Under the pieces are notes generated by a model. The model worked only from the letters and a program-made list of their open reading frames with translations. It did not search any database and had not been told where the DNA came from. Below, one piece after another: positions 9,246 to 62,928 of a DNA stretch of 64,000 nt. Location: NCBI GenBank assembly GCA_016183775.1, contig JACPDY010000002.1, forward strand, positions 16,060 through 80,059, written 5' to 3'. Source of the stretch: Bacteroidota bacterium (GTDB lineage: Bacteria; Bacteroidota; Bacteroidia; JABDFU01). Made by a program: the position numbers and the translations under genes. Every line of letters starts with the position of its first letter. The stretch's first letter is position 1.

Positions 9246-9374
9246 CTGCTATAATTCTATTTATACAAATCAGTACAAATAATTAGGATTTAGGATTAGG
9301 GATTTAGGATTTTAAAGTTTATTTGCGGGCTTAGCAATGTATTTCATTTTTTGATTCCTTTAATCCTTACAATA

Positions 9375-34617: not shown

Positions 34618-37404
34618 TCAAGGCACGGCAAGATCAATATTTATGCTGCAGCCGTTTTTATCTTTTATATTTATAGTATAAGCACCCGGGCACAGCTGAT
34701 TTTTATATCTCCTGGCAGATCCATCGGGCCACAAATAAGTGTACGGGCCGGTGCCGCCTGTGGCAGTTACAAGTATCCATTCTTTGCATCCGCATGCTGT
34801 ACAACCAGCGGCACCTTTGGCAAACTGACCAATTAAATTACATACAGTGCAAGGGCTAATAGTTATGTTTATGCTTTTGCTGCTGCTATCGCAGGTGGTT
34901 TTTGCTTTAAGCTGCACAGTGTAATTGCCTGGTGTTGTATATACTATACCTGTTGGGTTTTGGTTAACTGAGGCAGCGGGGGTACCGCCCGGAAAACTCC
35001 AGGTATAGCTTACAACGCTATTATCGCAACTAATGGAAAAATTGCCTGTGAAATTTATTGGTGTGTTGTTGCATAAAGGGTTAGTGCTTGTTGAAGCGAC
35101 GAGTGCGGTTGTTTTATCAAAGCCACAACTGTTTTTGTACAATTGGGCTACAAAGGCATCACTGGTTCCGCCCCCATAAACCGTTTGATGTGCTGCGGGA
35201 GTAACGGGATAGCTACCCCCGACATACCCCGTCATATATACAAAGCAGCCATAAAGGGTTATAACACATTCTTCATCATGAGGTATTGCCGGACTGCCTA
35301 CGTAGGAGGAACAAATGAGCTGTCCAGCCTGACTAAAGTGAGTAACAAAGCCATCTTCTTCACCTCCTAATGTTTGCTGCCACGCGCAGGAACTTACGGG
35401 AAAGTTTAAGCTATAGGTATCTCCCGATACATAAACGTCATTTGTAAGTTGATCCACCGCGACAGACAGCGCATAATCACGATCCGATCCTCCCAGGTAA
35501 GTTGCCCAGATACGACTTGCAGCGCCTCCGGCACTGTCAAATTTCACAAGAAAGGCATCATAAAAAACACTGCCACCAAAAACATTTTGAAATCCACCGG
35601 CAGCGATACCAATAGCGCTGGTGGTCTGGCCAGCCATATACACATTTCCTGCTACATCGGTGGCCACGCTGTTACCCCCATCATAAGCCGTTCCTCCATA
35701 GTAAGTGGCCCAGAGGCGTCCGCCTGAGGTGGAGTTAAATTTCACAAGAAAAGCATCAGTACCACCGCCCAAAACATTTTGAAACCCACCTGAAGCGATG
35801 CCTGCAGTACTGGGAGTATTTCCGGCAAGATATACATTTCCTGATGCATCGGTGGCTACGCTTTTACCCATATCATCACCTGTTCCTCCGTAGTAAGTGC
35901 CCCAGACACGGGATCCAGCCCCGCTAAATTTCACAAGAAAGGCGTCAAAAGTTCCGCCTCCAAAAATATTTTGAAATCCAGTGGAAGCGATACCGGCAGT
36001 GCTGACTGTATATCCGGCCAGATACACATTTCCCAATGCATCCGTGGCTATGCTTTGACCATAATCACCACTCATTCCTCCATAATAAGTAGCCCAAAGG
36101 CGGGTTCCTGACACAGAATTAAATTTTACAAGAAAGGCATCAAAAGTACCCCCAAAAATATTTTGAAATCCGGCGGAGGCTATACCTGTAGTGCTGGTGG
36201 TTTGGCCGGCAAGATAGATATTTCCTAATGCATCGGCAGCTACACTTTTACCCTGATCACTACCAGTCCCTCCATAGTAAGTGGCCCAGAGACGGGCTCC
36301 GGCCCCGTTAAATTTCACAAGAAAAGCATCCGCGCCTCCGCTCTTAACATTCTGAAATCCAGCGGAGGAAATGCTTGCAACGCTGCTGGTCCAACCGCCT
36401 AAATATACATTTCCCGATGCATCGGTTGCTATGCTGGTCCCAGCATCACCACCTGTTCCCCCATAGTATGTTACCCAGGGGTCTACCACTAAAGCATGTT
36501 CCGGGTTCCAGGTTCCAAGTTCAAATGTTACAAGCCCCTCTCCGGCTCTCCCCGGGAGGGAGAGAGTTAAATTGTAGTTAGCTTTTACATCAACAATTTT
36601 CCCGTTTATGTTTTGGTAAACTCTGGGTATTGATTCGGTAAATTCGTTTACACTTGTTTTAATTACCAAACTGCCTTCGCGATTAATGTGTATGCTTTCG
36701 GCTCCGCTCCAGCGAAGTTTAATTTGATTGGGGTTGGCATGGGGTTGTACTACCAGATCATACTTTATCCCCTGCCTGTCCGTCAGGCAAGCATTTTGCT
36801 TGTTACCATAATAGGTTATGTCAATACCATCATAAATATTTTTGTACGTTACTTTGTTGTATTGCTTTACGTTTAATACTCCATTGGGGCAATGCGCGTA
36901 GTAGTAATTGTTGTAGCCCTCTATTTCATCTTCATTAACAAACCTGCAGTTAGCATTGGCTCCGGCAAAATCCATATCAACCCTATTTACTTTAATTTTT
37001 TCATCACGCATTAATTCATCTTGTTTCGTATCCTCATCGGCTTCGGTTAATGTTCCGGCATTAATTAATGCTTCCACCTTTTCGTGAACTTTGTATTGGA
37101 CTTCGCCCATATTGTTGTACACATAACTAATGCCGCTTTTGCGTAAATAAATATCAGCACCCCTGCTTTCACCTTTATATAAAATATCGGGACAAAGATT
37201 ACCATTCATATCAGCTACCTGACCTTTATTAGGGATAAAACATAATCCGTTGCTACCCAATAGTTTCCCGGTTTGGGCATTTCCCAAAGCATATGTTTGT
37301 TGAGCATGGCTATGACTCACCATTAACCCAATCCCAACAAAAAATAAAATATTTTTTATCCCCGACGAGAGGCCAAGTCGTTTATTTTTGCTTTTTGATT
37401 CCAT
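34618..37404 (-). CDS. giant secreted SBBP beta-propeller surface protein with PKD-like domain and conserved Cys-rich C-terminal module (paralog 4)
   Basis: Signal peptide ...ILFFVGIGLMVSHSHAQQ; ENKGQ-type N-terminal domain (PNKGQ...QPHANPNQI); ~9 SBBP repeats (ATYYGGTG.D.G.SVATDA.GN.YLAG.T.ST.GIAS.GFQN..GG..DAFLVKF); PKD-like segment; C-terminus ...CTACGCKEWIL...DLAVP-stop. Confidence 0.75.
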   Translation of the reverse strand: MESKSKNKRLGLSSGIKNILFFVGIGLMVSHSHAQQTYALGNAQTGKLLGSNGLCFIPNKGQVADMNGNLCPDILYKGESRGADIYLRKSGISYVYNNMGEVQYKVHEKVEALINAGTLTEADEDTKQDELMRDEKIKVNRVDMDFAGANANCRFVNEDEIEGYNNYYYAHCPNGVLNVKQYNKVTYKNIYDGIDITYYGNKQNACLTDRQGIKYDLVVQPHANPNQIKLRWSGAESIHINREGSLVIKTSVNEFTESIPRVYQNINGKIVDVKANYNLTLSLPGRAGEGLVTFELGTWNPEHALVVDPWVTYYGGTGGDAGTSIATDASGNVYLGGWTSSVASISSAGFQNVKSGGADAFLVKFNGAGARLWATYYGGTGSDQGKSVAADALGNIYLAGQTTSTTGIASAGFQNIFGGTFDAFLVKFNSVSGTRLWATYYGGMSGDYGQSIATDALGNVYLAGYTVSTAGIASTGFQNIFGGGTFDAFLVKFSGAGSRVWGTYYGGTGDDMGKSVATDASGNVYLAGNTPSTAGIASGGFQNVLGGGTDAFLVKFNSTSGGRLWATYYGGTAYDGGNSVATDVAGNVYMAGQTTSAIGIAAGGFQNVFGGSVFYDAFLVKFDSAGGAASRIWATYLGGSDRDYALSVAVDQLTNDVYVSGDTYSLNFPVSSCAWQQTLGGEEDGFVTHFSQAGQLICSSYVGSPAIPHDEECVITLYGCFVYMTGYVGGSYPVTPAAHQTVYGGGTSDAFVAQLYKNSCGFDKTTALVASTSTNPLCNNTPINFTGNFSISCDNSVVSYTWSFPGGTPAASVNQNPTGIVYTTPGNYTVQLKAKTTCDSSSKSINITISPCTVCNLIGQFAKGAAGCTACGCKEWILVTATGGTGPYTYLWPDGSARRYKNQLCPGAYTINIKDKNGCSINIDLAVP

Positions 37405-39166: not shown

Positions 39167-40321
39167 CTATTTCAATTTAACATTTTTTATTGTGTGAATA
39201 TGATCCGGCTGTTTTTTTACATGATAAAAATCAAGCACATTTCCCAAATAAGTATCCGCCTTAGGCAACGGAACCCCGACAATATCTAATATACGTCTCG
39301 TTTTTTTATTTTCAAAAACCTGTTTATCTGCTATAAACTCTAAAAACATAGACAGATTTTGTAACTTTTTTTTATTCTTTATGTTAGAAAATATACTAAA
39401 AATGAACAGCAGAAATTTAAAAAGCCTTAATGGAACCAACCTGGTAGTTGGGATAGCGTAGTTCTTGCTTTTGTAAAACTCCTGAACTTTTTTTGCAAGT
39501 TCCTGAATTTCGATGGATTGCCCGGGCCCCGAAGTAAGGTGAAGTATTTTTCCAATCGTGGACGTTTGCTGCGTTGACCAGACAATAACTTTAGCCACAT
39601 AATCAGAAGGCACAGTATCCAGTTTTACATTTTTTATTTGGGGAAGAAAGCCTGCGGTATATTTCCCTGTTAAAAAATCTGTTAAGTGATAAAAAATCTG
39701 GAAATGAATAGTTTTTCCTGTAATAGAATCGCCAACCACCATGCTCGGCCTGTGAATAGTTATCGGCCAGCCTATATTTATTTTTTGTAAAACCAGTTCT
39801 TCCGCTTTTGTTTTTGACGACTCATAAGTATTATGAAAGGCTCTTGGCGTAATAAGCGGCGTTTCAGGGATGCTGCCCGGCATTTTACCGGCAATACCTA
39901 CCGTGCTTATATATTCGATTTTTTCAAGTGTGCCATTTTGTAAACATAAATCAGCCAGCTGCAATAAATTTTCTGTGGAACGTACGCTTGAGCGGTGCGC
40001 CTGCTCCTCCGTCATATTCATTTTAACAGTGGCCGCACAATGAATAATATGTGTTATAGAATGAATGATCTCTTTAAATATAGTTGGATTTATGCCAAAC
40101 CCATCTTCAGTAATATCGCCACGGACCGGAATTAGTGTTGGTACATCTGCATTGAAATCCCAATACGCTAACAGGTCATTGAAACGTTCTGCCAACTTTT
40201 CGTCAGATTCAGCACGCAGCAAAAGATAAACCCTGGATGGATTAAGTTCCATCAGGAAAGGCACTATGCTGCTGCCCAGGGCTCCAGAGGCCCCTGTAAG
40301 AAATATAGTTTTTAGTGACAT
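39167..40321 (-). CDS. NAD(P)-dependent thioester/fatty-acyl reductase (NAD_binding_4, male-sterility-type SDR)
   Basis: Rossmann motif LTGASGALGSSI; catalytic YESSKTKAE; 384-aa length typical of the thioester-reductase family; overlaps the upstream ligase stop. Confidence 0.6.
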   Translation of the reverse strand: MSLKTIFLTGASGALGSSIVPFLMELNPSRVYLLLRAESDEKLAERFNDLLAYWDFNADVPTLIPVRGDITEDGFGINPTIFKEIIHSITHIIHCAATVKMNMTEEQAHRSSVRSTENLLQLADLCLQNGTLEKIEYISTVGIAGKMPGSIPETPLITPRAFHNTYESSKTKAEELVLQKINIGWPITIHRPSMVVGDSITGKTIHFQIFYHLTDFLTGKYTAGFLPQIKNVKLDTVPSDYVAKVIVWSTQQTSTIGKILHLTSGPGQSIEIQELAKKVQEFYKSKNYAIPTTRLVPLRLFKFLLFIFSIFSNIKNKKKLQNLSMFLEFIADKQVFENKKTRRILDIVGVPLPKADTYLGNVLDFYHVKKQPDHIHTIKNVKLK

Positions 40322-42027
40322 AAAAAATAGTATCCCTTTTTGTTTTTAAGTTCTTCGAAAAAGTAATCAAAGCTCCCGCGCGACAGTTCTATTTTTTTGT
40401 ATAACTCCTCGATTTCGCTTTGATAATTTTCCTCAATTGCTTTTCTTCTTATTTTTAAGCCGGCTGTAAGTTCTGCTTTTTCAATGGAAAAGCTATTTTC
40501 TAAAATAATTCCGCCTCTTATTTTTTCGTAAGAGCTGCGGTTTAAATTAGTTTTTTGAATTGAATGAACGGTATCATCTACAATGGTACGAATATTTTTA
40601 TCCTTACTGCTTTCTTTGTTAATTGTAACCAGGCAAGCCAGGCAGGGCCTGTTTGCGCCAACCAGTACTACCTGGTTTAAAAACGGACTGGCCATTAACT
40701 GCTCACCAATTGCTCCGATTGAGATCTTGCGTCCTGTGGACATTTTGATCAGATCATTTTTTCTTCCGGTAAGAAATAAAAAACCTTGTTTATCAAAATA
40801 ACCAAGGTCTCCTGTAGGGAAAAATCCATCATCACTAAAATGGGTTTTTGTGTCTTTGTCAATATACCCATTAAAGAGTCCAGGGCCTTTTATGAAAATT
40901 TCTCCGTCAGCTGCAATTTTTACCTGGTTAGGAAGCAATGGTTTTCCAACACTCCCCAATTTATATTCTTTGGGTCGATTTAATGCAATTGGAAGCACAT
41001 TCTCACTCATCCCGTAAGCTTCTATAAGAGGGATGCCAATGGATTCAAAAAAAGTTAATACCTCTAATCGGCATGGGGCGGAGCCTGTAAGCATATACTG
41101 CATCTTTCCACCGAAAATAGCGGCTATTTTTTTTAACAATAAGGTATAAACAGGTTTGTAAAAAACATTGCTTTTTTTAATCCTTAAAAGCCGGTTAAGC
41201 AAAAGCCTGATTGAGAACGGTTGGGAATTCATTTTCTGTTTTACCGAGGCGTACACCTTTTCATACAATAATGGTACACCAATTAATACGGTAGGTTGAA
41301 TTGTTGGTAAAACATTAATTATGTCCTTTGGATTAGTAACAAAGTAAATGGAAGCATTCGTGATAAGCGCACAAAGATTAACCATTCGTTGAAAAAGACT
41401 TGCCAATGGCAGCCAGCAAATTGTTCGTCCATTTTCCTGGGCAAATGCGATAGAAAGCGTTTGAGCCGCCTGTATAAGTTGCCTGTGTGTGTATGCAATT
41501 CCCTTTTGTTTGCCTGTACTCCCGGAGGTGAAAATGATGGTAGCCACTGTATCTGCTGATACAATGGGCCAAACAGTTCTTTGGGTAACAGGCAAATCCA
41601 CCCAGGTATTTTGATCTATATTGTAAAAAACATCTTTTGATATATTAAATTGTTCCTGAAGCGTTACAGCTGTTTTTTTGTCCTCAATAATAACTAATTG
41701 AGGGGATACCTGTTTAATTATTTCATTCATGGAATCGGGCCGGGCATGCGTTTCAATACCGACAATGGTTGCGCCAATCAGTAAACAGGCTTTTTCAAAT
41801 AAATCCCATTGAATGGAAGTCGGTAAAATAATTACTACCCGATCTTCAGTTTTAATGTTTAACGCTAATAAAAGTTCCGCCGCGCTTTTTATTTTTTCAT
41901 AATAGGCAGTCCAGTTAAGATCCGACCAAACCCCTACTTCCGCGTTTTTATACATTGCAACTTTCTTTGCTGGAAAGCGCTGCACCTGTTCAGTTAAAAA
42001 CTCCGGAATAGTTAATATGCTTTCCAT
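40312..42027 (-). CDS. acyl-AMP/acyl-CoA ligase (AMP-dependent synthetase family)
   Basis: AMP-binding motif IIFTSGSTGKQKGIAY and GDLGYFDKQGFLFLTGRKNDLIK (A8-like). Start chosen at MESILTIPEF (42027) because that Met and 21 bp upstream are what was duplicated at 44371..44562; the ORF extends to 42111. Confidence 0.7.
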   Translation of the reverse strand: MESILTIPEFLTEQVQRFPAKKVAMYKNAEVGVWSDLNWTAYYEKIKSAAELLLALNIKTEDRVVIILPTSIQWDLFEKACLLIGATIVGIETHARPDSMNEIIKQVSPQLVIIEDKKTAVTLQEQFNISKDVFYNIDQNTWVDLPVTQRTVWPIVSADTVATIIFTSGSTGKQKGIAYTHRQLIQAAQTLSIAFAQENGRTICWLPLASLFQRMVNLCALITNASIYFVTNPKDIINVLPTIQPTVLIGVPLLYEKVYASVKQKMNSQPFSIRLLLNRLLRIKKSNVFYKPVYTLLLKKIAAIFGGKMQYMLTGSAPCRLEVLTFFESIGIPLIEAYGMSENVLPIALNRPKEYKLGSVGKPLLPNQVKIAADGEIFIKGPGLFNGYIDKDTKTHFSDDGFFPTGDLGYFDKQGFLFLTGRKNDLIKMSTGRKISIGAIGEQLMASPFLNQVVLVGANRPCLACLVTINKESSKDKNIRTIVDDTVHSIQKTNLNRSSYEKIRGGIILENSFSIEKAELTAGLKIRRKAIEENYQSEIEELYKKIELSRGSFDYFFEELKNKKGYYFLCH

Positions 42028-42048
42028 GATGTTGAAATTTTTATTTAG
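41857..42048. repeat. 192-bp direct repeat, copy A (5' end plus RBS of the acyl-AMP ligase gene)
   Basis: About 93% identical to 44371..44562. Confidence 0.8.
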
Positions 42049-42079
42049 AATTAGTTTCCTGTTGTTTTTTATTAAAAAT

Positions 42080-42751
42080 TTATTTGTTGATGATAATTTT
42101 TTTTGCCTCAAGTATGTATTCGGGACAGATAGATAGCGGGATTAATTGAATAAAATAAATTCCGGTTTGTTGGTTGCTTAAATCAAGCCCTGTTTTTTCT
42201 CCGATAATTTTAGTTTTAAAAATAATTTGTCCCAGAACATCCGTAATAATCACATTACTATTTTGTTCTGCTCCCTCAATAATGAATGTTCCTGTGCCTG
42301 GGGTGGGGTAAATAGTAAATTCTGTAATTCTATTGCAACTAACCGCCACTAAATTAAAATAGTTATACTGCCCGTTAAAGTCGGTTTGTTTTAAACGGTA
42401 GTACGAAGTTCCATTCAATGGTTCATTATGGGCAAAAGTATAAGACATGGTTTGGCTGCTGTTGCCAGTACCATCAATGATGCCAATAATTTCAAAGTTA
42501 ACACCATCTATAGTTCGTTCAATGGTAAAATAATCGTTATTTATTTCTGATGCCGTTGCCCACATTAAATTTACTTTTCGGTTATTGCATTTCGCTTCAA
42601 ACGAAAGTAACCCAATTGGTAAAGGCACTTCACTACCCACAGAGCCAACACAACTAAACGAAAAGCCATCATCGTTTCCTACCGAATAAATTTGGGAAAA
42701 GGTATTTGAAAAACATCCCATTAATACAAAAAACAATAGATTTACTCTCAT
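42080..42751 (-). CDS. small secreted protein with fn3-like domain and T9SS type-A C-terminal sorting domain
   Basis: Signal peptide MRVNLLFFVLMGCFSNTFSQ (start 42751); C-terminus ...TEFTIYPTPGTGTFIIE...ITDVLGQII...GIYFIQL = Por_Secre_tail; internal LPIGLLSFEAK...NNDYFTIERT...YYRLKQTD domain shared with 51139..53045. Confidence 0.65.
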   Translation of the reverse strand: MRVNLLFFVLMGCFSNTFSQIYSVGNDDGFSFSCVGSVGSEVPLPIGLLSFEAKCNNRKVNLMWATASEINNDYFTIERTIDGVNFEIIGIIDGTGNSSQTMSYTFAHNEPLNGTSYYRLKQTDFNGQYNYFNLVAVSCNRITEFTIYPTPGTGTFIIEGAEQNSNVIITDVLGQIIFKTKIIGEKTGLDLSNQQTGIYFIQLIPLSICPEYILEAKKIIINK

Positions 42752-42789
42752 GATTTTAATTGGTTGATAAATAATAAAAACAACCCCGG

Positions 42790-44541
42790 CTAAGGCGCCA
42801 CACGAACACCACGACAACCGAAAACGTTGGAACGACTGAGGTTTGTGAGAGCTCCGAAGTAGCGGTCGGACACACGCAGGTAACTTGTAGCAGTGCTATA
42901 ATTACCGCCACGCATGTCAGTGCCTATGGCATCGGTACCTGGCCAGTTACTTGCATCGGCATTGCCCGATGCGCTTATTATACCATTGCCATGGATGCCT
43001 GTAAAAGCCCTGCCTGTGGCATTGCCAACCGTTACACAGCGTTTCCACAAGTTGCCGCTGAGTTCCATAATGCCGTAATAACTTGCTCCTACACCTACTC
43101 GTGTATTTACTCCTTGCCCGAAATTGCCTACCCGCATAGGTCCTTGTACACTTGCATGAAAGCCATAATCACAGTTGGCAGCTCCATTACTGGAAGTTTC
43201 GTTGGTTAAGCCGGCATTGCTAATGCCTGTTGCTTGTGTAACAGATGCGCTGCCCCATGCGTATTCATTTGCAACAGTGGCAAGTGTGCCTCTGGCGGCT
43301 TTTTCGTATTCCAATTCGGTCATAGGGCGCAGAGCTGTCCAGTCCAAATAAGCGGCAAGGTCTGCCCAACTTAAATAATTGCAGGCAATGCTTTGCCCGT
43401 CATTAGTTTCATCGCCAGTGCCATCACCATCAAGATCGCAATAAAAGGTAATAGGATCAGATGTATGTATTGTTGCATCACAACGAATTCCATTACGATA
43501 TTGCAAAGTCGAATTATTGGACATAACATACCTGTTTGTAACAGCGGTAGTTCCGGGGGCAAGGCCAGTAGCTGTCCTGGTATTTTGTTGGTCGCGTGTT
43601 AATTTGTTTAAAAATGCCACATATTGTGCTTGTGTAATTTCGTATTTCATACAGTAAAAGGCGTTATAACCCTTGGGGAATGCTGCAGGGATAGGTCCTG
43701 TTTGGTCGCCAGAGGAAGTAGATGGATTTGGGTAGTAGAGGTTGCCTGCGGTAGTACCTACGGTAATGGCTCCCTCGCTAGTTATTTGGTAAGGATTGGT
43801 AGTAGTGGGGTAAGTATAAAATGCTCCGCTTTCTGTACCGCCACTACCTACATAAAAACTTGCTTGCGGCACATATACCATTTCTATGGCAAATACGCAT
43901 AGTTCTACTTTATCGACGTCTATTAATCCATCTACACCGTAATTCCAACGAAGTTGTGTTCCGGTATAACTTACACTACCCTGTGCCATATCGGCATTAC
44001 GATATATAAAAATGCCATACGCACCATTGGCACCATTGTCGTTACTGGTGGTTATATTGCTGTTGGGGGGGGGGGTATGTCCATCTCCGCTGCCTGTGCC
44101 ATCCGCCCAATTTAAGGTAGCGTGGTTCCAGGTGGTTTCTCCTTCTAAACGGTATTTTACAAATACCCAGGCGGCATCCCAATTAGAGGTACCTGAAGAG
44201 GTGCGCCAAGAGTTGTCCCAACTGATATCAAACTGCACGTGGGTATAATCCGAAATGGTATTTTGACCGGTTAAGCGTACATTAGCCACATTGATATTGT
44301 TGGAAAAGCAATATTGAGGCACCGAAACTATAAGTATTACAGTTATACCAAACCAAAATGATAATAAAATGTTTAACGATAATAAAAGCTCCGCCGCGCT
44401 TTTTAGTTTTTCATAATAGGCAGTCCAATTAAGATCCCACCAAACCGCTACTTCCGCGTTTTTATACATCGCAACTTTCTTTGCTGGAAAGCGCTGCACC
44501 TGTTCAGTTAAAAACTCCGGAATAGTTAATATGCTTTCCAT
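42790..44541 (-). CDS. FGE-sulfatase (SUMF1/GldJ/GldK/PorK-like) domain protein with chimeric N-terminus copied from the acyl-AMP ligase
   Basis: FGE-domain motifs EMVYVPQASFYVGS, YCMKYEITQAQYVAFL, SWADLAAYLDWTALRPMTELEYEKAARG, GNLWKRCV, RGGNYSTATSYLRVSDR; first 57 aa (MESILTIPEF...AELLLSLNI) are ~95% identical to the ligase N-terminus because of the 192-bp duplication. Confidence 0.65.
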   Translation of the reverse strand: MESILTIPEFLTEQVQRFPAKKVAMYKNAEVAVWWDLNWTAYYEKLKSAAELLLSLNILLSFWFGITVILIVSVPQYCFSNNINVANVRLTGQNTISDYTHVQFDISWDNSWRTSSGTSNWDAAWVFVKYRLEGETTWNHATLNWADGTGSGDGHTPPPNSNITTSNDNGANGAYGIFIYRNADMAQGSVSYTGTQLRWNYGVDGLIDVDKVELCVFAIEMVYVPQASFYVGSGGTESGAFYTYPTTTNPYQITSEGAITVGTTAGNLYYPNPSTSSGDQTGPIPAAFPKGYNAFYCMKYEITQAQYVAFLNKLTRDQQNTRTATGLAPGTTAVTNRYVMSNNSTLQYRNGIRCDATIHTSDPITFYCDLDGDGTGDETNDGQSIACNYLSWADLAAYLDWTALRPMTELEYEKAARGTLATVANEYAWGSASVTQATGISNAGLTNETSSNGAANCDYGFHASVQGPMRVGNFGQGVNTRVGVGASYYGIMELSGNLWKRCVTVGNATGRAFTGIHGNGIISASGNADASNWPGTDAIGTDMRGGNYSTATSYLRVSDRYFGALTNLSRSNVFGCRGVRVAP

Positions 44542-54843: not shown

Positions 54844-57800
54844 TCATGGAACCGTTAGATTAACATTAATACCACACCCATTTTTGTCTTTAATATTTAT
54901 AGTGTAATTGCCCGGACAAAGTTGATTTTTATACCGGTTTATATATCCATCCGACCATGTATAAGTATACGGAGTTGTTCCTCCCGTAGCCGTGGTCATT
55001 ATCCACTCCTTGCAGCCACAACCTGCACAGTTGGCTGTACCTTTTACAAATTGTCCAGCCAAAGCGGAAGGCGAAATTATTACAGCTGTTACAGTTGAGA
55101 TACAGCTGCCTGCATCGGTAACTGTAATTGTATAAGAACCGGCAGTTATACCATTGAATTGATATGTGGCGAAAGTGCTTATGGCACTCACTCCTGTACT
55201 CCAGCTATAAGTATAAGGTCCGCTGCCATTACTTATTGTTACTGATACAGAACCTGTTCCGACACTGCATGCCGGGTTACTTAAAACAGTGCTTTGAGCT
55301 GATAAAGAACACGCGCAGCTGTTAACAACAATATTTTCAGTTAACGAATCTTTATTACACCCGTCATCAACAACCAGTTTTACAGCATAGGTTCCGGCAA
55401 CAGCATATATAATACCTGAAGGATTTTGTTGGGCGGAAAAATTGGGTGTGCCACCTGCGAATGTCCAGCTATAAACAGGAACAGCACCGGAGCAGCTTGT
55501 GGTATAGCTTCCATTAAAATTTTGCGCTGAATTGGGACAAAAGCCGTTGTTGTTTGTAAATGCTATGGTGCCAACTGTTGGTGATCCGCACATGGAAGCA
55601 CATAGCGATGCGATCACAAGATCATAACTTCCGGCATTTGTCGTTTGAAATGCGCCCGGAGTTACAGGAAAAACGGGAAATGCATATCCCAATAAGAAAA
55701 CAGTGTTCTTATATATGGCTATACAATTACCGGGTAATGTTTCATCATCCTGCACAGAATTTCCCCCGACATAGGTTGAACAAATAAATTGCCCGTTAGG
55801 GTCGAAATGAGCAAAGAACAGATCTTCCTTCCCGCCGAAAACAGACTGGAATGCACAGGTGCCGATTGGCATATCAGATGAATATGTATCTCCTCCCAGA
55901 TAAATGTCATTATTGCCATCCGTAATTACGCCATTACCCTCTTCCCTGCCGGCAGTACCTCCATAATAAGTCGACCATAAACGATTCCCGGCCGGATCAA
56001 ATTTTATTATAAAGGCATCTGACGCTCCTTTCCGAATGATTTGAAACGCACCTGCCGTTACAGGAAGATCAGGAGAATAGGTCAATCCGGAAACTATAAC
56101 ATTCCCGATATTGTCAGTTGTTACACTTTGACCAAAGTCAAAATCGCTGCCTCCATAATAAGTGGCCCATAAGCGTCCGCCTGCCGGATTAAATTTGACT
56201 ATATACGCATCTTCCTTTATTCCGTTAAGCGCTAACTGAAACGCCCCTGCTGATACAGGAAAATTTGCCGACTTTGTTTGTCCCGTTATTATGAAATTCC
56301 CACTGCTATCTGTGCTTATCGCATTATACATATATTCATCGGCAGTTCCTCCATAATAGGTGGCCCATAAGCGGTTGCCGGCAGAATTAAATTTCACAAC
56401 AAAAGCATCCCACAGTCCGGCCTTTGTCAGCTGAAATGCTCCTCCCGTAACAGGAAAATTTGTCGATTCTGTACAGCCTGTTATAGCTATATTTCCACCT
56501 ATATCAGCAACTACCCCAACCCCATAATCTCCTGAACTACCTCCATAAAAAGTCGCCCATAAACGGGCTCCTGCAGGGTTAAATTTTACCACAAATGCAT
56601 CCGAAGTACCACCACCGGAAACACCCTGGAACGCCCCGGCCGTTACCGGAAAATCAGTCGAGTAAGTAATACCTGTAATGGATATTTCATTGCTCCCGCT
56701 TTTATCAACACAAATACCTCTGCCTTCTTCACCAAATGTTCCTCCATAATAGGTGGCCCATAAACGGTTACCTGCATTATTAAACTTTACCACAAAGGCA
56801 TTAGAAAATGACTTTTGAACTACTTGAAACGCCCCGGCAGTTACGGGAAAATCGAATGAAGACGTTGCCCCCGTAATCACTATATTCCCATTATTATCCG
56901 TGTCTATGCCCTGCCCTTGCTCAACATCACTGCCACCGTAATAAGTGATCCAGGGGTCAACCACCAAAGGAAATGAAGAATTAAAAATTGAAAATAAAAA
57001 ATGAACGATCACCTCATTGTTTGATAAATACTCAAGCCTGTATTCCGTTTTTACATCAATAATTTTCCCATTTATATTTTGATAAACCTTTGGCAATACT
57101 TCCGTCATTTCTGCAATGGAGTTTTTAATTCTTAATTCTCCATCTTTTATTTCCACCTCATCCGCTCCGCTATACTTTAACTTTATCTGATCCGGATTTC
57201 CTCCCGGTTTTACTATTATATCATATTTTAACCCCTGCCTGCGAGCCGGGGTGCCCTCCGGCTGGCAAGCCTGCCCTTTTGCCCCGTAATATTTCAAATC
57301 TATATTGTTATAAATATTCTTTATAATCACTTCATTATATGAATTCACTTTCAGTATTCCCTGCGGACAATGTGGATAATAATAATTAGAATAACCCTCC
57401 AACTGATCTCTCTCATATATCTCCGGGTCCCGGTTACAGTTTATAAAGTCAACATCCACACGATGGAAGTTCAGCTTTTGGTTTGCTATACGTTCTTGTT
57501 TTACATTCCTGACGGCAGCCTGGTTATTTTGCTCATCATTTCTATTGTTTCTTTCTATCTCTTCCTCCCGTTCGTCAGCTTCATGCATTATCTCTCCCAA
57601 ATCACCCAGCACATAACTGAGACCGGTTTTACGCAGATATATCTGTGCTTCGCCTGCATTCCCTTTGTACAGCACTTCGGGGCAAAGATTACCACCCATA
57701 TCAATTATCTGTCCATTATTTTTTGTAAAGCACAACCCATTTCCCCGCTCAGCCTCATGACCGCCCGGATGAGCAGTAGTAGTTCGCGCAGACTTCTCAA

Positions 57801-57864
57801 AATTACCTGCGGCAAATAAATTTCCCGATATAAAAACGACTGTAATGATAAAACTTTGCCTCAT
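54844..57864 (-). CDS. giant secreted SBBP beta-propeller / SprB-repeat surface protein with conserved Cys-rich C-terminal module (paralog 6)
   Basis: Signal peptide MRQSFIITVVFISGNLFAAG; N-terminal domain KNNGQ...KPGGNPDQI; ~8 SBBP repeats; SprB-type repeat; C-terminus ...CAGCGCKEWIM...NLTVP-stop. Confidence 0.75.
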   Translation of the reverse strand: MRQSFIITVVFISGNLFAAGNFEKSARTTTAHPGGHEAERGNGLCFTKNNGQIIDMGGNLCPEVLYKGNAGEAQIYLRKTGLSYVLGDLGEIMHEADEREEEIERNNRNDEQNNQAAVRNVKQERIANQKLNFHRVDVDFINCNRDPEIYERDQLEGYSNYYYPHCPQGILKVNSYNEVIIKNIYNNIDLKYYGAKGQACQPEGTPARRQGLKYDIIVKPGGNPDQIKLKYSGADEVEIKDGELRIKNSIAEMTEVLPKVYQNINGKIIDVKTEYRLEYLSNNEVIVHFLFSIFNSSFPLVVDPWITYYGGSDVEQGQGIDTDNNGNIVITGATSSFDFPVTAGAFQVVQKSFSNAFVVKFNNAGNRLWATYYGGTFGEEGRGICVDKSGSNEISITGITYSTDFPVTAGAFQGVSGGGTSDAFVVKFNPAGARLWATFYGGSSGDYGVGVVADIGGNIAITGCTESTNFPVTGGAFQLTKAGLWDAFVVKFNSAGNRLWATYYGGTADEYMYNAISTDSSGNFIITGQTKSANFPVSAGAFQLALNGIKEDAYIVKFNPAGGRLWATYYGGSDFDFGQSVTTDNIGNVIVSGLTYSPDLPVTAGAFQIIRKGASDAFIIKFDPAGNRLWSTYYGGTAGREEGNGVITDGNNDIYLGGDTYSSDMPIGTCAFQSVFGGKEDLFFAHFDPNGQFICSTYVGGNSVQDDETLPGNCIAIYKNTVFLLGYAFPVFPVTPGAFQTTNAGSYDLVIASLCASMCGSPTVGTIAFTNNNGFCPNSAQNFNGSYTTSCSGAVPVYSWTFAGGTPNFSAQQNPSGIIYAVAGTYAVKLVVDDGCNKDSLTENIVVNSCACSLSAQSTVLSNPACSVGTGSVSVTISNGSGPYTYSWSTGVSAISTFATYQFNGITAGSYTITVTDAGSCISTVTAVIISPSALAGQFVKGTANCAGCGCKEWIMTTATGGTTPYTYTWSDGYINRYKNQLCPGNYTINIKDKNGCGINVNLTVP

Positions 57865-58024
57865 TTAAGACCGCTGATGATGCTATATTGCTTAGCAAAT
57901 TAACTTAAAAATACACATAAAATCTCCACATTATATGGACATACATTTGCCCTTGACTTCTAGGTAATCAATTTCATAACTATTTTATCAACAAAACTGA
58001 CAACAATGAACAAAAGAGTTATTT

Positions 58025-60435
58025 TTGAAAACTATTAATGATTGCTACGCATCGCACTATTTTTGCATGACAAAAAAAAACTACCTCGATGAATTAAACC
58101 CGGTGCAGCGGCAAGCTGTTGAATGCACTGAAGGCCCCGTTATGATCATTGCAGGAGCAGGTTCAGGGAAAACACGTGTTCTTACCTATCGTGTGGCACA
58201 CCTCATAGAGAAAGGAATTGACCCTTTCAACATACTTGCTCTCACATTCACTAACAAGGCCGCGCGTGAAATGAAGGAGCGAATTGCAAAGATTACCGGT
58301 AACAATGCCCGTAATTTATGGATGGGCACCTTCCATTCGGTTTTCGCGAAAATATTACGCGTTGAAGCGGACAAAATAGGATACCCCAAAAATTTCACCA
58401 TCTACGACACAGAGGATTCCAAAGGTCTGCTGAAGGATATTACCAAAGAACTCGGACTGGATGAAAAGATCTATAAACCCTCCCTGGTATACAATCGTAT
58501 TTCGGCGGCTAAAAACATGCTGATATCGGCCCAGGCATATAACCTCAACGACCGCATTACTGAAGAAGACAGGATGAGCGCCAAGCCACGGATAGGAGAG
58601 ATATACAGCAAATACAGCAACCGTTGCTTTAAAGCAGGGGCTATGGATTTTGACGATCTTCTTTTTAAAACAAACGTACTGCTGCGTGACTTTCCTGATG
58701 TACTTCACAAATACCAGGAAAAGTTCAAATATATTTTAGTTGACGAGTACCAGGATACTAACTTTTCTCAATACGTTATTGTTAAACAGCTGGCCGCACG
58801 TTTTGAAAATATTTGTGTGGTTGGTGACGACGCGCAAAGCATTTACGCGTTCCGCGGCGCGAACATTCAGAATATTCTGAATTTTGAAAAAGATTACCCT
58901 GACCTGAAGACATTTAAACTGGAACAAAACTACCGTTCAACAAAAACCATTGTCGGTGCGGCAAACAGTGTTATCGCGAACAATAAGGAACAGCTGGATA
59001 AAAAAGTATGGACAGAAAACGATCCCGGTGAAAAGATAAAAGTTACACGCGCACTGACTGACAACGAAGAGGGCATAAATGTGGCCTCTTCGATTTTTGA
59101 AACACGGGCGAATAAACAGGCCAGAAACGACGCGTTTGCCATACTGTACCGCACCAACGCACAATCGCGTGCTATGGAAGAAGCTTTACGCAAACTGAAT
59201 ATCCCCTATCGCATTTACGGAGGCTTATCATTTTATCATCGCAAAGAAATCAAGGATCTGCTGGCATACTTCCGTTTAGCGATCAACCCGCACGATGAAG
59301 AATCACTCAAGCGAATTATCAACTTCCCTGCACGTGGCATCGGACAAACAACCATAGATAAACTGATAGTCGCCGCTTCAGATAATGATGTAAGTATCTG
59401 GACAGCCATTGACAATATTATTGATTTCAAGTTGGACATTAATGCCGGAACAGCAAGTAAAATCAGCGACTTTGCCGCCATGATAAAAAGTTTTGGCGTT
59501 ATGGTTATGAAAATATACAGGAACTGCTCAATGGGTTGAAGGAGTTTGTTGAAGAAAGTGGCGAGGGACAAGAGGCGGGGGACGAGGAAGGGGATAAGTC
59601 CGAAGTCCGAAGTCCGAAGTTCGAAGAAAAAGATGAGACAGGAGACAGGAGACAGGAGTTAGAAGAAGTGGCAGGAAGCAGGAAGCAGGAAGCAGAAAAC
59701 ACAACCGATGAAAATACTGGTCTCAAATCTCAAATCTCAAATCTCAAATCTCTTGACCTATTCATGCAGGACATCGCGTTACTTACCGATGCGGATAAAA
59801 AAACAGAAGGAGAAGAAGACCGTAACCGGGTTTCGCTGATGACCATACATGCGGCCAAAGGCCTTGAATTCCCTTATGTTTATATTGTGGGCCTGGAAGA
59901 GAATTTATTTCCCTCACAAATGGCTCTTAACTCGCGCGAGGAGTTGGAAGAAGAGAGACGGCTATTTTATGTAGCCTTAACCCGCGCCGAAAAACAGGTT
60001 ACTTTAAGTTATGCTGTTACACGCTATCGCTGGGGTAATTTAATAAATTGTGAACCAAGCCGTTTTATTGATGAACTCGCAGAAGAACACCGTGAAATGC
60101 CTGCCCCACAAAGCAGGGAACATGAAGAAACCTGGGGCATTCAGACTAAACCATTTGTCAGAAAACAAAAAACACAGCAGGTTACAACAACAAAAGCATC
60201 CCCACCTAAAAATCTTGTTAAACTAAATGCTGCTTCACGATCAACCGGCAGCAATAACGATCCCGAAAATTTAAAAGACCTGCAAGCCGGCATGGAAGTG
60301 CATCACGAACGCTTTGGAACAGGAAAAGTAATAAGTATGGAAGGAGTGTTTCCGAATAACAAGGCAACGGTTTTGTTCCCTGTTGTCGGACAAAAACAAT
60401 TGTTGCTAAGGTTTGCGAAGTTGAAAATTGTGTAA
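58025..60435 (+). CDS. uvrD: ATP-dependent DNA helicase UvrD/PcrA, interrupted by an apparent 1-nt frameshift (two ORFs 58025..59539 and 59536..60435)
   Basis: Motif I AGAGSGKTRVL, II VDEYQDTN, downstream motif VI TIHAAKGLEFPYV; frames join as ...FGVMVMKNIQELLNGLKEFVEE if one A is added to the A4 run at 59510-59513; contains a low-complexity insert built from 7-bp tandem repeats. Confidence 0.8.
59598..59750 (+). repeat. four adjacent tandem heptanucleotide repeat tracts inside uvrD
   Basis: (GTCCGAA)x3 plus imperfect copy at 59598-59625; (GAGACAG)x3 at 59635-59655; (GCAGGAA)x3 at 59671-59694; (TCTCAAA)x4 at 59721-59748; encode an acidic low-complexity linker. Confidence 0.85.
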
Positions 60436-60604
60436 GCGTCAGGCTACCCTTGTCTCATCCCAGCCTGCCGGCAGCTATCGTGTGGACACAAATATGTGTG
60501 ATTTTCAATCGAATATATTGATTTCGATCAAAAACACCGAAGGTGTAAAATTATTGTAGAATAAATTTGAAAGGAAATAAATTAAGGGAGGTTTTTCTGA
60601 AAGT

Positions 60605-62155
60605 GTGGGATTACTTAAGAATAAAATGATACAATTAAAACAACTTTGGGAAGAAAAACCGCTGAAACTTATCATTTTTGCCGGACTTTTCTTCAGGGCA
60701 TTAGCCGTTATCTTCTCAAAAGGATTCGGCATGCACGACGATCATTTCCTGATCATTGAAGCCGCTCAATCCTGGGCCGATGGTTCCGACTACAATTATT
60801 GGCTCCCCGGCTCCGGCGCCACTCAGCCAAGCGGTCATAGTTTTTTTTATGTAGGATTACATTATTTTCTATTCCGCTTATTTAACCTTATCGGCTTTAC
60901 TGATCCTGACGCTAAAATGTATGTTATACGTTTTCTGCATGCCGTATTTTCGGTGATCACTATCATACTTGGTTATAAAATAACCGAACATTATTCCGAC
61001 AAAAAAAATGCGCGCACTGCGGGCTTGTTACTTGCCATTTATTGGTTCATGCCGATGCTTAGTGTACGCAACCTCGTGGAAGTGGTTTGTGTTCCCTTTT
61101 TATTATACGCAACCTGGCTCATCATTATAGCTGAATCAAACAACAAACAAACCACTTTTTTATATGCCGGATTAATTGCGGGCCTTGCTTTTTCAATTCG
61201 TTTTCAATCCCTGTTTTTTGTCGGCGGATTCGGATTATACCTGTTGATAAAAAAACAATTTAAACCAGCTATTCTGTTTGGGCTGGGCGCTTTTTCCTGT
61301 ATGGCATTGATACAGGGCCTTATTGACTACAATACCTGGGGACGACCCTTCGCTGAGTTTTTTGAGTACGTTAATTACAATATGCACAGCCCTTATGCAT
61401 ACAGTACGCAGCCCTGGTACAATTACTTCCTTACATTAGGAGGGATCCTAATTCCGCCGGTAAGCCTGTTTCTGCTAATTGGTTATTTCAAACTCTGGAG
61501 AAAAAATTTACTGCTCTTTCTGCCTGCATTCCTTTTCCTCGCCTTTCATTCCTACTTTCCCAATAAACAAGAGCGCTTTATATTTCCGATCGTCCCGTTC
61601 ATCATTATGCTTGGCATTATCGGATGGAATGAATTTATTGATAAGTCAGGCTTTTGGCAAAAGCGGCAAAAATTATTGCGAGGCTGTTGGATATTTTTTT
61701 GGGCATTGAACATATTATCCCTGTTATTCATTACCTGCTCTTACTCCAAGCGCAATCGCGTAGAGGCGATGTTATACCTGCAAACAAAGGGCGATGTAAA
61801 GAACCTGATCATTGAGGACAGTAATCGTAATGACTGGATGATGCCTCCTTTGTTTTATCTGAAAAAATGGATATCTCCTTATGGAGTAACGCAAATATTA
61901 ACACATGACACACTTAAATTTAATTTGCGCACCGTGCCTGTTCCTAAACGGCCCAATTATGTGATTTTTATGCAGGCCGAGAACCTTGATAAACGTGTGG
62001 CTGATTTCCGGAAAAATTATGCAACGCTTAAATACGAAACTACTGTAGAACCGGGTTCAATGGACAGATTGCTTCATTGGTTAAACCCAAACAATGAAAA
62101 CAATACCAGCACCATATATAAAATAGAAAAAGTGCTGCCCGATACAATTCGTTGA
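60605..62155 (+). CDS. polytopic membrane glycosyltransferase-like protein (GT-C fold; GT22/PMT/ArnT-like)
   Basis: ~12 predicted TM segments; N-terminal loop motif GMHDDHFLIIEAAQSWADG resembles the HPDExFQ..E loop of GT-C mannosyltransferases. Confidence 0.4.
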   Translation: MGLLKNKMIQLKQLWEEKPLKLIIFAGLFFRALAVIFSKGFGMHDDHFLIIEAAQSWADGSDYNYWLPGSGATQPSGHSFFYVGLHYFLFRLFNLIGFTDPDAKMYVIRFLHAVFSVITIILGYKITEHYSDKKNARTAGLLLAIYWFMPMLSVRNLVEVVCVPFLLYATWLIIIAESNNKQTTFLYAGLIAGLAFSIRFQSLFFVGGFGLYLLIKKQFKPAILFGLGAFSCMALIQGLIDYNTWGRPFAEFFEYVNYNMHSPYAYSTQPWYNYFLTLGGILIPPVSLFLLIGYFKLWRKNLLLFLPAFLFLAFHSYFPNKQERFIFPIVPFIIMLGIIGWNEFIDKSGFWQKRQKLLRGCWIFFWALNILSLLFITCSYSKRNRVEAMLYLQTKGDVKNLIIEDSNRNDWMMPPLFYLKKWISPYGVTQILTHDTLKFNLRTVPVPKRPNYVIFMQAENLDKRVADFRKNYATLKYETTVEPGSMDRLLHWLNPNNENNTSTIYKIEKVLPDTIR

Positions 62156-62928
62156 TAATGGACCTCATTTTCTTAACCATTTTCGCTTTCATCGCGGGCT
62201 TTATTGACTCAGTAGTCGGAGGCGGCGGACTCATACAAATGCCCGCGTTTTTTATTTTCTTTCCCCAGCTGTCTGTTGCAACTGTATATGGAAGCAATAA
62301 ATTTGCAGCCTTTTCAGGCACATCTGTTGCCGCGTTCCGTTATGCAAAAAACACACGCATCCCATGGGATGCGGTGATGCCGGCACTTATAACGGCTTTT
62401 ATTTTTTCCATCCTGGGGGCAAGCGTTGTAAGCCTGATCAACAAAGAAGTTATCAAACCCATAGTGCTGAGCCTGCTTATTGCAGTCGCCATTTATACAT
62501 TTACCAAAAAAGAGTTCGGCCTGCATCACGTTCCAAAGCTGGACAAAAACAAAACACTTCTGTATTCATTACTCACCGGTGCGGCACTTGGTTTTTACGA
62601 CGGGTTCTTTGGCCCTGGTACAGGCAGTTTCCTGATCATGATATTCATTAGTGTGTTCGGATTTAATTTTCTTATTGGATCCGCTTCTGCCAAGCTGGTG
62701 AATTGCGCCACCAACATTTCAGCGCTTGTCTTTTTTATATATATGGGGCAGGTCCGTTATGATATTGCTATTCCAATAGCCTTAAGCAACATGGCCGGAT
62801 CGTGGATCGGTGCACGCATGGCCCTTAAAAAAGGGAGCGGGTTTGTACGTGTTCTTTTCCTGGTAATTGTTACAGGAATGATAATCAAATTCGGGTATGA
62901 TATTTTCTTCGGGGAAACACAACGATAA
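62152..62928 (+). CDS. sulfite exporter TauE/SafE family membrane protein
   Basis: FAFIAGFIDSVVGGGGLIQMPAFFIFF motif and a second half-repeat (GFYDGFFGPGTGSFLI); 258 aa with ~8 TM helices. Confidence 0.75.
   Translation: MIMDLIFLTIFAFIAGFIDSVVGGGGLIQMPAFFIFFPQLSVATVYGSNKFAAFSGTSVAAFRYAKNTRIPWDAVMPALITAFIFSILGASVVSLINKEVIKPIVLSLLIAVAIYTFTKKEFGLHHVPKLDKNKTLLYSLLTGAALGFYDGFFGPGTGSFLIMIFISVFGFNFLIGSASAKLVNCATNISALVFFIYMGQVRYDIAIPIALSNMAGSWIGARMALKKGSGFVRVLFLVIVTGMIIKFGYDIFFGETQR

Follow-up and report, generated by a model that had tools for sequence, protein, structure and literature searches.

In a 64,000-nt stretch of a Bacteroidota genome (assembly GCA_016183775.1, contig JACPDY010000002.1, positions 16,060 to 80,059 of the forward strand), which is called the window hereafter, a gene for a DNA-repair helicase of the UvrD/PcrA/Rep family carries four different heptanucleotide tandem arrays in the segment that codes for an acidic linker of domain 2B. 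The cluster is real and far beyond chance, and period-7 arrays are found in the same linker in close relatives, where the number of units differs even between intact genes. The explanation that we prefer, to which a probability of roughly 60% can be given, is that slippage drives the turnover of repeats in a linker that tolerates it, while selection retains the in-frame outcomes. The copy of the gene in the window is also interrupted by a frameshifting deletion upstream of the repeats.

The arrays were located with Tandem Repeats Finder (TRF) and with our own scan of the window (Table 1). Both methods recovered, between positions 59596 and 59752, the four distinct tracts that an earlier note on this DNA had reported inside the helicase gene, and the acidic linker peptide quoted there is identical to the frame-3 translation. 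The tracts were said to stand back to back, which is not the case, as they are separated by spacers of 8, 12, and 25 nt and accompanied by a fifth element, a 14-nt pair. One heptamer phase running through all arrays was also considered and rejected, as the inter-array distances are not multiples of 7. Under a period-independent criterion that demands at least 14 consecutive lag matches at periods 2-15, the window contains four arrays, all of them in the helicase linker, compared to none in 93 kb of loci from close relatives of the same clade and two, with periods 5 and 6, in 608 kb of distant orthologous loci. Comparable strong arrays therefore number two in 701 kb of related Bacteroidota DNA, a background of ~3e-6 per bp, and the chance expectation of one such run per 64 kb, computed from base composition, is ~3e-4. 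In addition, the lag-7 autocorrelation of the window linker is 0.57, ~10 standard deviations over nucleotide or codon shuffles, so that the earlier statement that such a cluster is not expected by chance is confirmed. Translation of a perfect 7-mer array passes through every phase, and all four array units are accordingly free of stop codons in each of the three sense phases.

Table 1. Coordinates in the window of the helicase gene parts, the deletion junction, the linker, and the repeat elements.
Feature	Position	Strand	Description
Helicase gene, 5′ part	58067..59539	+	Frame 1; starts at ATG 58067; domains 1A, 1B, 2A-N, and most of 2B
Deletion junction GTTATG/GTTATG	59498..59509	+	GTT microhomology at the break, 59504-59506
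Helicase gene, 3′ part	59507..60435	+	Frame 3; ENIQELL, linker, motifs V and VI (MTIHAAKGLEF, VALTRA), variable tail, PcrA/UvrD tudor; stop 60433-60435
Hypervariable acidic linker	59530..59760	+	77 codons, delimited by ENIQELL and FMQDIALL
Period-14 (2x7) pair	59556-59583	+	AAGTGGCGAGGGAC / AAGAGGCGGGGGAC; pair present in L093, absent from L081
Array 1	59596-59626	+	AAGTCCG (= GTCCGAA) x4.4; single mismatch, last unit AAGTTCG; codes KSEVRSPKFE
Array 2	59635-59658	+	GAGACAG x3.4, perfect
Array 3	59671-59695	+	GCAGGAA x3.6, perfect; window-specific, alignable counterpart absent from L081 and L093
Array 4	59721-59752	+	TCTCAAA x4.6, perfect; codes LKSQISNLKSQISNLKS; merges into the start of the conserved LKSLDLF helix

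Other possible functions of the repeat DNA were also considered. An antisense open reading frame (ORF) of 73 residues (59505-59726, minus strand) extends over the arrays. It owes its existence solely to the absence of stop codons from the reverse complements of AAGTCCG, GAGACAG, and GCAGGAA, though not of TCTCAAA, and is thus probably no gene. The repeats gave no Rfam match to an RNA element at E <= 1, their fold z-score of +0.6 does not indicate a DNA structure, and promoter and terminator scans remained at chance level.

Compared to the PcrA and UvrD structures, the linker that contains the arrays is an insertion between the last two helices of domain 2B. It is flanked by the conserved helices ...ENIQELLNGLKEF and LDLFMQDIALLTDADK, between which PcrA of G. 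stearothermophilus has a short loop (residues 523-525). Among clade members the linker, as delimited here, is 23-84 residues long, and its sequences cannot be aligned. An AlphaFold 2 (AF2) model was built on P0001, the intact protein of the sister species, and is of medium quality (mean predicted local distance difference test (pLDDT) score 66, predicted template modelling score 0.50). In this model, residues 531-571 form a coil with pLDDT values of 24-34, with helices 513-530 and 572-587 on either side, and the repeats are thus predicted to code for an acidic, disordered protrusion where domain 2B ends. The alternative view offered in the earlier note, that of an unusual expanding insert in the 2B linker, is supported by a hypervariable insertion at the position of PcrA residues 523-525, with the coil in the AF2 model, and with the gain and loss of heptamer units described below.

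Sequences from related genomes are referred to by locus and protein (L081 and P0001, L084 and P0002, L085 and P0003, L087 and P0005). No sequence of the same species was recovered: protein searches with the fused protein or with the linker alone returned nothing above 88% identity, the best match in a scan of species-representative genomes was 65% identical, and a metagenome scan with a degenerate anchor for LFMQDIALLTDADK found four contigs of the clade and nothing else. In the clade, the lag-7 autocorrelation of the linker is 0.50 in L081 (z 6.4) and in L084 (z 7.4), 0.35 in L085 (z ~3), and 0.38 in L087 (z ~3), whereas no lag-7 signal is seen in the linkers of the next, more distant orthologs. 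Over 51 linkers, including those of the window and L081-L085, the lag peaks are mostly at 9, 15, or 18. All eight period-7 arrays in 81 kb of clade loci fall within the linker, as opposed to none of the 17 period-7 TRF arrays in 608 kb of distant loci. The arrays of the relatives are degenerate (69-88% matches), perfect arrays being found in the window only, and the intact gene of L084 contains 4 to 5 period-7 arrays. By these comparisons, the heptamer mode belongs to a small clade. As a separate observation, distant loci of the Sphingobacteriia type have imperfect period-7 arrays of 4-5 units in intergenic DNA adjoining the helicase gene, just 5′ of the gene start or past its end (L070 2922-2955, L065 3004-3035, and L046 5364-5400).

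Comparison of individual arrays reveals orthology together with rapid turnover. Array 1, which belongs to an AAGTCNG family, is in register in the window and in L081 and L085 (both AAGTCGG-type, with 4.3 units in L081), and array 4 is in register with the right flank and has 4.6-4.7 units in the window, in L084 (80% matches), and in L081, where the unit is AAATCCT. Position 6 of array 1 is C in all four units of the window and G/G/A/G in L081, and in array 4 of L081 a derived C is common to four of the five units, so that units are homogenised within each lineage. Fourfold sites of the window and L081 have diverged by K = 0.43, from which one would expect ~24 neutral substitutions on the window lineage in the 112 nt of the arrays, but these 112 nt depart from periodicity at one position at most (P ~8e-10). 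On the basis of this difference, we infer that the window arrays were remade much more recently than the species split.

Changes in copy number could also be traced. The genes of L093 and L081 are 96.4% identical, and array 1 has 1.4 units in the former and 4.3 in the latter, with a gap of exactly 21 nt, that is, three units, by which the frame is kept. Array 2, with its 3.4 units in the window, has 1.4 units in both L081 and L093 (GAGACAGGAG), and this increase of two units (+14 nt) is offset by +19 nt in the adjacent unalignable segment containing array 3, giving a net change of +33 nt. Since +14 nt is not a multiple of three and the +19 nt are adjacent, at least one out-of-frame change has therefore been compensated nearby. 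The earlier note had named identical copy numbers in all related strains as a result that would speak against switching. In the relatives the counts are not identical, and the difference in array 1 is in frame, so that a switch is neither refuted nor shown.

These observations could be brought together as follows. Recurrent replication slippage (slipped-strand mispairing) would generate arrays in the disordered acidic loop at the end of domain 2B, and in the small clade this loop evolves mainly via gain and loss of 7-nt units. Only stop-free units would persist, given that they are read in all three phases. A one-unit change would shift the frame, and intact genes would accordingly be expected to show three-unit steps or changes compensated in a neighbouring array, selection acting as the probable filter. 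The arrays of the window lineage would be perfect because they have recently been re-homogenised and expanded, and the loss of 100 nt through microhomology is a separate event that knocked out the gene, or else an assembly or minor-variant artefact. The data directly show the arrays and their non-randomness, orthology, and turnover, as well as the in-frame step of three units and the deletion, whereas the slippage mechanism, the filtering by selection, and the recency are inferences. According to Mrazek et al. (2007), as cited in PMC4679880, heptanucleotides are the most abundant longer simple-repeat class in most prokaryotic genomes; the reason proposed there for the preference for 7 nt is the length of DNA that contacts the polymerase, and 3n units are described as those usual in coding regions. 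The helicase linker resembles an intragenic variable tandem-repeat linker in that it is a tolerant segment of variable length, but its units of 7 and 14 nt are not the 3n units that mark such linkers.

Several points weigh against this explanation. One would expect selection to prefer 3n units in coding DNA, and in the distant orthologs, with lags of 9, 15, and 18, it does; the exclusive use of 7 or 14 nt across 4-5 unrelated units in one loop is only partly explained. A genome-wide heptamer habit as a strong effect was rejected by the period-independent scan; only a mild excess exists among imperfect TRF arrays, for which 7 is the commonest period in the 608 kb of distant loci (17 arrays, compared to 9 with period 6 and 5 with period 8). 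Furthermore, the P0001 gene, degenerate arrays included, is identical in three samples, and the left linkers of L081 and L095, whose genes are 91.1% identical, differ at only 1 of 132 positions. Between L081 and L093 there are differences at 17 of these 132 positions, plus indels, despite their higher gene identity, which suggests that linker alleles recombine within the L081/L093/L095 species complex. Finally, the unit count of array 4 is constant (4.6-4.7) across species with saturated fourfold sites (K = 1.3), suggesting a constraint beyond free slippage. If the arrays are only products of slippage, the locus would provide a clean natural case of linker evolution through frameshift-prone repeats, in which selection passes three-unit or compensated changes only, and a useful marker of very recent repeat turnover.

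The 5′ part of the gene matches the Pfam family UvrD-helicase (PF00580, 5.6e-90), the family UvrD_C (PF13361) is divided between the two ORFs (profile positions 2-160 in the 5′ part and 236-348 in the 3′ part), and the 3′ part also matches UvrD_C_2 and PcrA_UvrD_tudor (PF21196, 2e-06, 28 bits at a cut-off of 23.9). The intact sister protein P0001 matches G. stearothermophilus PcrA (1pjr) with a phmmer E-value of 8.7e-175, but in the NCBIfam equivalog test it stays below every cut-off, with 791 of the required 911 bits for PcrA, 657 of 965 and 625 of 1144 for UvrD, and 605 of 951 for Rep. The gene is thus a member of the UvrD/PcrA/Rep family (superfamily 1A, SF1A) but no curated equivalog, and the name uvrD used in the earlier note is an approximate one.

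The same note had treated the gene as intact, which proved to be incorrect. In a DNA alignment with L081, exactly 100 nt (3x33+1) are gone, a segment that is absent relative to all relatives and codes for ADKNAFDVGNHIANASGILRELYNDKTPEGVS plus one additional base. An alignment with 13 relatives likewise shows the window without these 32 conserved residues, between GVMV and RYENIQELL. The deleted segment corresponds approximately to PcrA residues 475-508, inside domain 2B as it is delimited in the PcrA and UvrD structures, and the deletion sits 90 nt upstream of the repeats. At its end, the 5′ part runs out of frame for 11 residues (MKIYRNCSMG*) up to a premature TGA (59537-59539), and the frameshift keeps the 3′ part from being translated from the upstream start. 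The window gene is therefore not a single ORF with a complete domain 2B, having the frameshift, the stop codon, and the loss of 2B residues. Compared to L081, the 5′ part has 127 synonymous and 9 non-synonymous differences in 479 codons, and the 3′ part has 54 synonymous and 10 non-synonymous differences in 225 codons, all 10 being in the variable tail. No additional stop or frameshift is present in the 930 nt 3′ of the lesion. Because the downstream part is without decay, the deletion is either recent, or a minority variant picked up by the assembly, or an artefact.

A programmed frameshift or a bypass at this point could be rejected because 33 conserved codons are physically gone and the relatives translate the same upstream sequence in frame. 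An exact look-up of the truncated window ORF in public assemblies returned no record. A genome-wide footprint of helicase loss, in the form of repeat instability or many broken genes, was looked for in the window and rejected: no other perfect arrays occur there, and the other genes checked, including the neighbours of the helicase gene, are intact. A trio of overlapping ORFs at 40312-44541, first suspected to be broken, consists of three unrelated genes. If the sequence is correct, the genome holds a natural UvrD/PcrA null allele, and the gene is best annotated as a pseudogene rather than as an intact uvrD. The surroundings of the gene differ between the two species. In the sister species (L081 8328-15612), a 519-aa gene lies upstream of the helicase gene and a 231-aa methyltransferase gene lies between it and a GT22 glycosyltransferase gene; neither is present in the window (57864-62928), where the helicase gene is followed directly by GT22 (60605-62155) and TauE (62152-62928).

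The break raises the possibility, which we regard as unlikely, that the arrays were perfected and multiplied only after the 100-nt deletion had removed selection on slippage products. The window allele is the only broken allele and the only one with perfect arrays, and it has the most arrays among alleles at ~88% nucleotide identity. Slippage is much faster than point mutation and could have remodelled the linker before any other decay, and free slippage would keep the linker in frame with a chance of ~1 in 3. However, the reading frame of the linker still agrees with that of the conserved flanks on both sides, arrays 1 and 4 match the unit counts of intact orthologs (4.4 versus 4.3, and 4.6 versus 4.7, respectively), and the 930 nt past the lesion retain a pattern of purifying selection (54 synonymous to 10 non-synonymous differences) together with an open frame. 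Moreover, the intact gene of L084 carries even more period-7 arrays than the broken one.

Another explanation, one of the two offered in the earlier note and quite unlikely in our view, is that the repeats constitute a contingency (phase-variation) locus, at which one-unit changes reversibly toggle the repair helicase and give rise to a heritable mutator or hyper-recombination subpopulation. The underlying claim that gain or loss of a single unit frameshifts the helicase holds in silico. There, a change of one or two units in either direction in any array leads to a stop 39-116 codons into the 3′ part, before or just past the start of motif V, so that the product lacks motifs V and VI along with the tudor domain, whereas a change of three units restores a full-length protein that is 7 residues longer or shorter. 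In-silico compensation works between adjacent arrays only and in one direction per pair. The arrays have the form expected at a contingency locus, each being an uninterrupted non-3n tandem repeat inside an ORF and above chance length, and their turnover far outpaces point mutation. In addition, the constant count of array 4 and the difference of exactly three units in array 1 among intact alleles would be the expected trace of cycling through the OFF state with selection for ON, the two-unit change in array 2 requires a compensating change close by, and a non-3n periodicity is in use though a 3n periodicity would be safer. There are also precedents, as heptanucleotide tracts are proven switches at the hmw loci of H. 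influenzae (PMC2651432) and, with the unit GGTGCCC, in P. fluorescens (bioRxiv 10.1101/2024.05.01.592015), and switching of mutL by repeats was shown in Salmonella (PMC2955026).

A more specific form of this idea would have an environmental Bacteroidota lineage keep a multi-tract heptanucleotide switch, in which slippage in any of the four tracts turns the helicase OFF, a proposal that we find decidedly improbable. It is just as doubtful that the OFF state would be a transient mutator or hyper-recombination state, from which slippage in the same or an adjacent tract leads back to ON. Such a switch would account for the non-3n unit, the counts conserved modulo 3, the compensated two-unit change, and the concerted evolution of the units, but credit for this can be given with equal reserve only. 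No out-of-frame repeat allele was found among the intact relatives: 9 of the 9 distinct intact alleles examined are in frame, with P0001, P0241, P0242, P0243, and P0002-P0005 all full-length, and the cluster members likewise include no out-of-frame allele. The identity of the P0001 allele, noted above, holds for three independent samples, and the only alignable array difference between intact alleles is the one of three units. The tracts of 3.4-4.6 units are at the bottom of the range of candidate simple sequence repeats (SSRs; at least 3 units, PMC2651432) and far under the 13-38 units of proven heptamer switches. The arrays of the sister species are degenerate (69-88% matches), which is the opposite of what switching selection would maintain, and the sole inactive allele observed, that of the window, owes its defect to an irreversible deletion rather than to a change in the repeats. 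The mutator switch of the earlier note thus has only the in-silico truncation in its favour, is not supported by the comparative data, and remains unproven. If it is true, contingency loci would reach beyond pathogen surface genes to a core helicase for DNA repair in an environmental bacterium, and a reversible route to mutator states would exist, with a contingency locus controlling genome stability in a free-living bacterium.

It is very improbable that the DNA period is a by-product of selection at the protein level for a peptide that repeats every 7 residues, one such 7-aa repeat being encoded by three 7-nt units. Array 4 fits this idea to some extent, as it codes for SQISNLK x1.5 with hydrophobic residues (I, L) spaced 3 or 4 apart as in a coiled-coil heptad and abuts a helix, and its region differs between the window and L084 at 4 of 28 nt, being more conserved than the saturated fourfold sites. 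However, each array encodes only 1.1-1.5 peptide repeats, the remaining units code for charged peptides that contain proline or glycine (KSEVRSP, ETGDRRQ, and AGSRKQE), the linker peptides are not conserved among relatives, and AF2 shows the linker as a coil with very low confidence. Selection on the peptide also cannot yield perfect nucleotide identity between units that are read in three phases. An artefact of sequencing or assembly, or a chance effect of mere purine-rich low-complexity sequence, is hardly credible, for although the linker region is indeed purine-rich and of low complexity and an unexplained 100-nt deletion lies nearby in the same assembly, period-7 arrays occur at the same positions in independent assemblies (Logan, JGI, and ENA) of four or five related species, shuffling the linker by codon or by nucleotide never gives a lag-7 signal near the one observed, and the background of strong arrays is very low.

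Some further repeats in the window are recorded here as observations in their own right. An intergenic array, (TTAGGAT)x4.3 with 82% matches, is located at 9283-9312 between two minus-strand ORFs. Its reverse complement, AAATCCT AAATCCC TAATCCT AAATCCT, is the unit of array 4 in the L081 linker (L081 11680-11712), and 9283-9312 is the sole site in the window with an AAATCCT-type array. Two weak period-7 TRF arrays, GTTCCAG x3.6 (36498-36522) and AAATTAA x4.6 (56971-57002), occupy homologous positions in two paralogous DUF7948/SBBP/PKD/SprB surface proteins, at ~residues 288-303 and directly ahead of an LVVDPW[VI] motif. At 35526-36468, within the ORF 34618..37404(-), a 192-nt unit is repeated 4.9 times in tandem (alternatively scored as 384 nt x2.1), corresponding to SBBP beta-propeller repeats.

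The slippage-driven turnover that we favour can be placed among several known systems. The tetra- and heptanucleotide SSRs of H. influenzae include an intragenic (AATTTTG)14 in hmw1a of strain PittAA (PMC2651432). The helicase arrays are similar to these loci in being perfect non-3n repeats inside an ORF, where a one-unit change shifts the frame and truncates the product. They differ in that the tracts are short (3.4-4.6 units), with four different units clustered in one loop, in that the gene codes for a housekeeping repair helicase of an environmental Bacteroidota and not for a surface or restriction-modification function, and in that neither an out-of-frame allele nor population heterogeneity was observed in the sequences examined. 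In P. fluorescens, a GGTGCCC tract in pflu0185 evolved de novo, and such tracts can begin from 1-2 copies (bioRxiv 10.1101/2024.05.01.592015). This tract shares with the helicase arrays a 7-nt unit in a coding region whose duplication or loss switches the frame; unlike them, it stands alone, close to the 5′ end of a regulator gene, and its function was shown experimentally. In the same study, uvrD and mutS gave global mutators in other lineages, by ordinary loss-of-function mutations and not by repeats.

Short tandem repeats within a DNA-repair gene are also known from mutL of Salmonella and E. coli, for which copy change of the 6-bp repeats was proposed to toggle the mutability of the population (Chen et al. 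2010, PMC2955026). Unlike the situation in the helicase gene, the 6-bp change is in frame and alters the ATP-binding region with no truncation, and allele conversion was measured, whereas the 7-nt units described here lie in a loop that looks dispensable. The arrays resemble the long SSRs of prokaryotes with units of 5-11 nt, as these are presented via PMC4679880, in their 7-nt unit, in their short length (2-6 copies being typical), and in the proposed origin by slippage. Those SSRs, which include heptamers of cyanobacteria, Beggiatoaceae, and Bacteroidetes (TAACTGA), are mostly intergenic and often of one unit genome-wide, while the helicase gene has several different units in one coding loop and no genome-wide family. 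A further parallel is the repeat tract of E. coli tolA (PMC3477136), a low-complexity linker that differs in length between strains as repeats are gained or lost, which the protein tolerates. The tolA units are 3n and in frame, whereas single 7-nt steps in the helicase linker are frameshifts, and it is the three-unit or compensated changes that survive.

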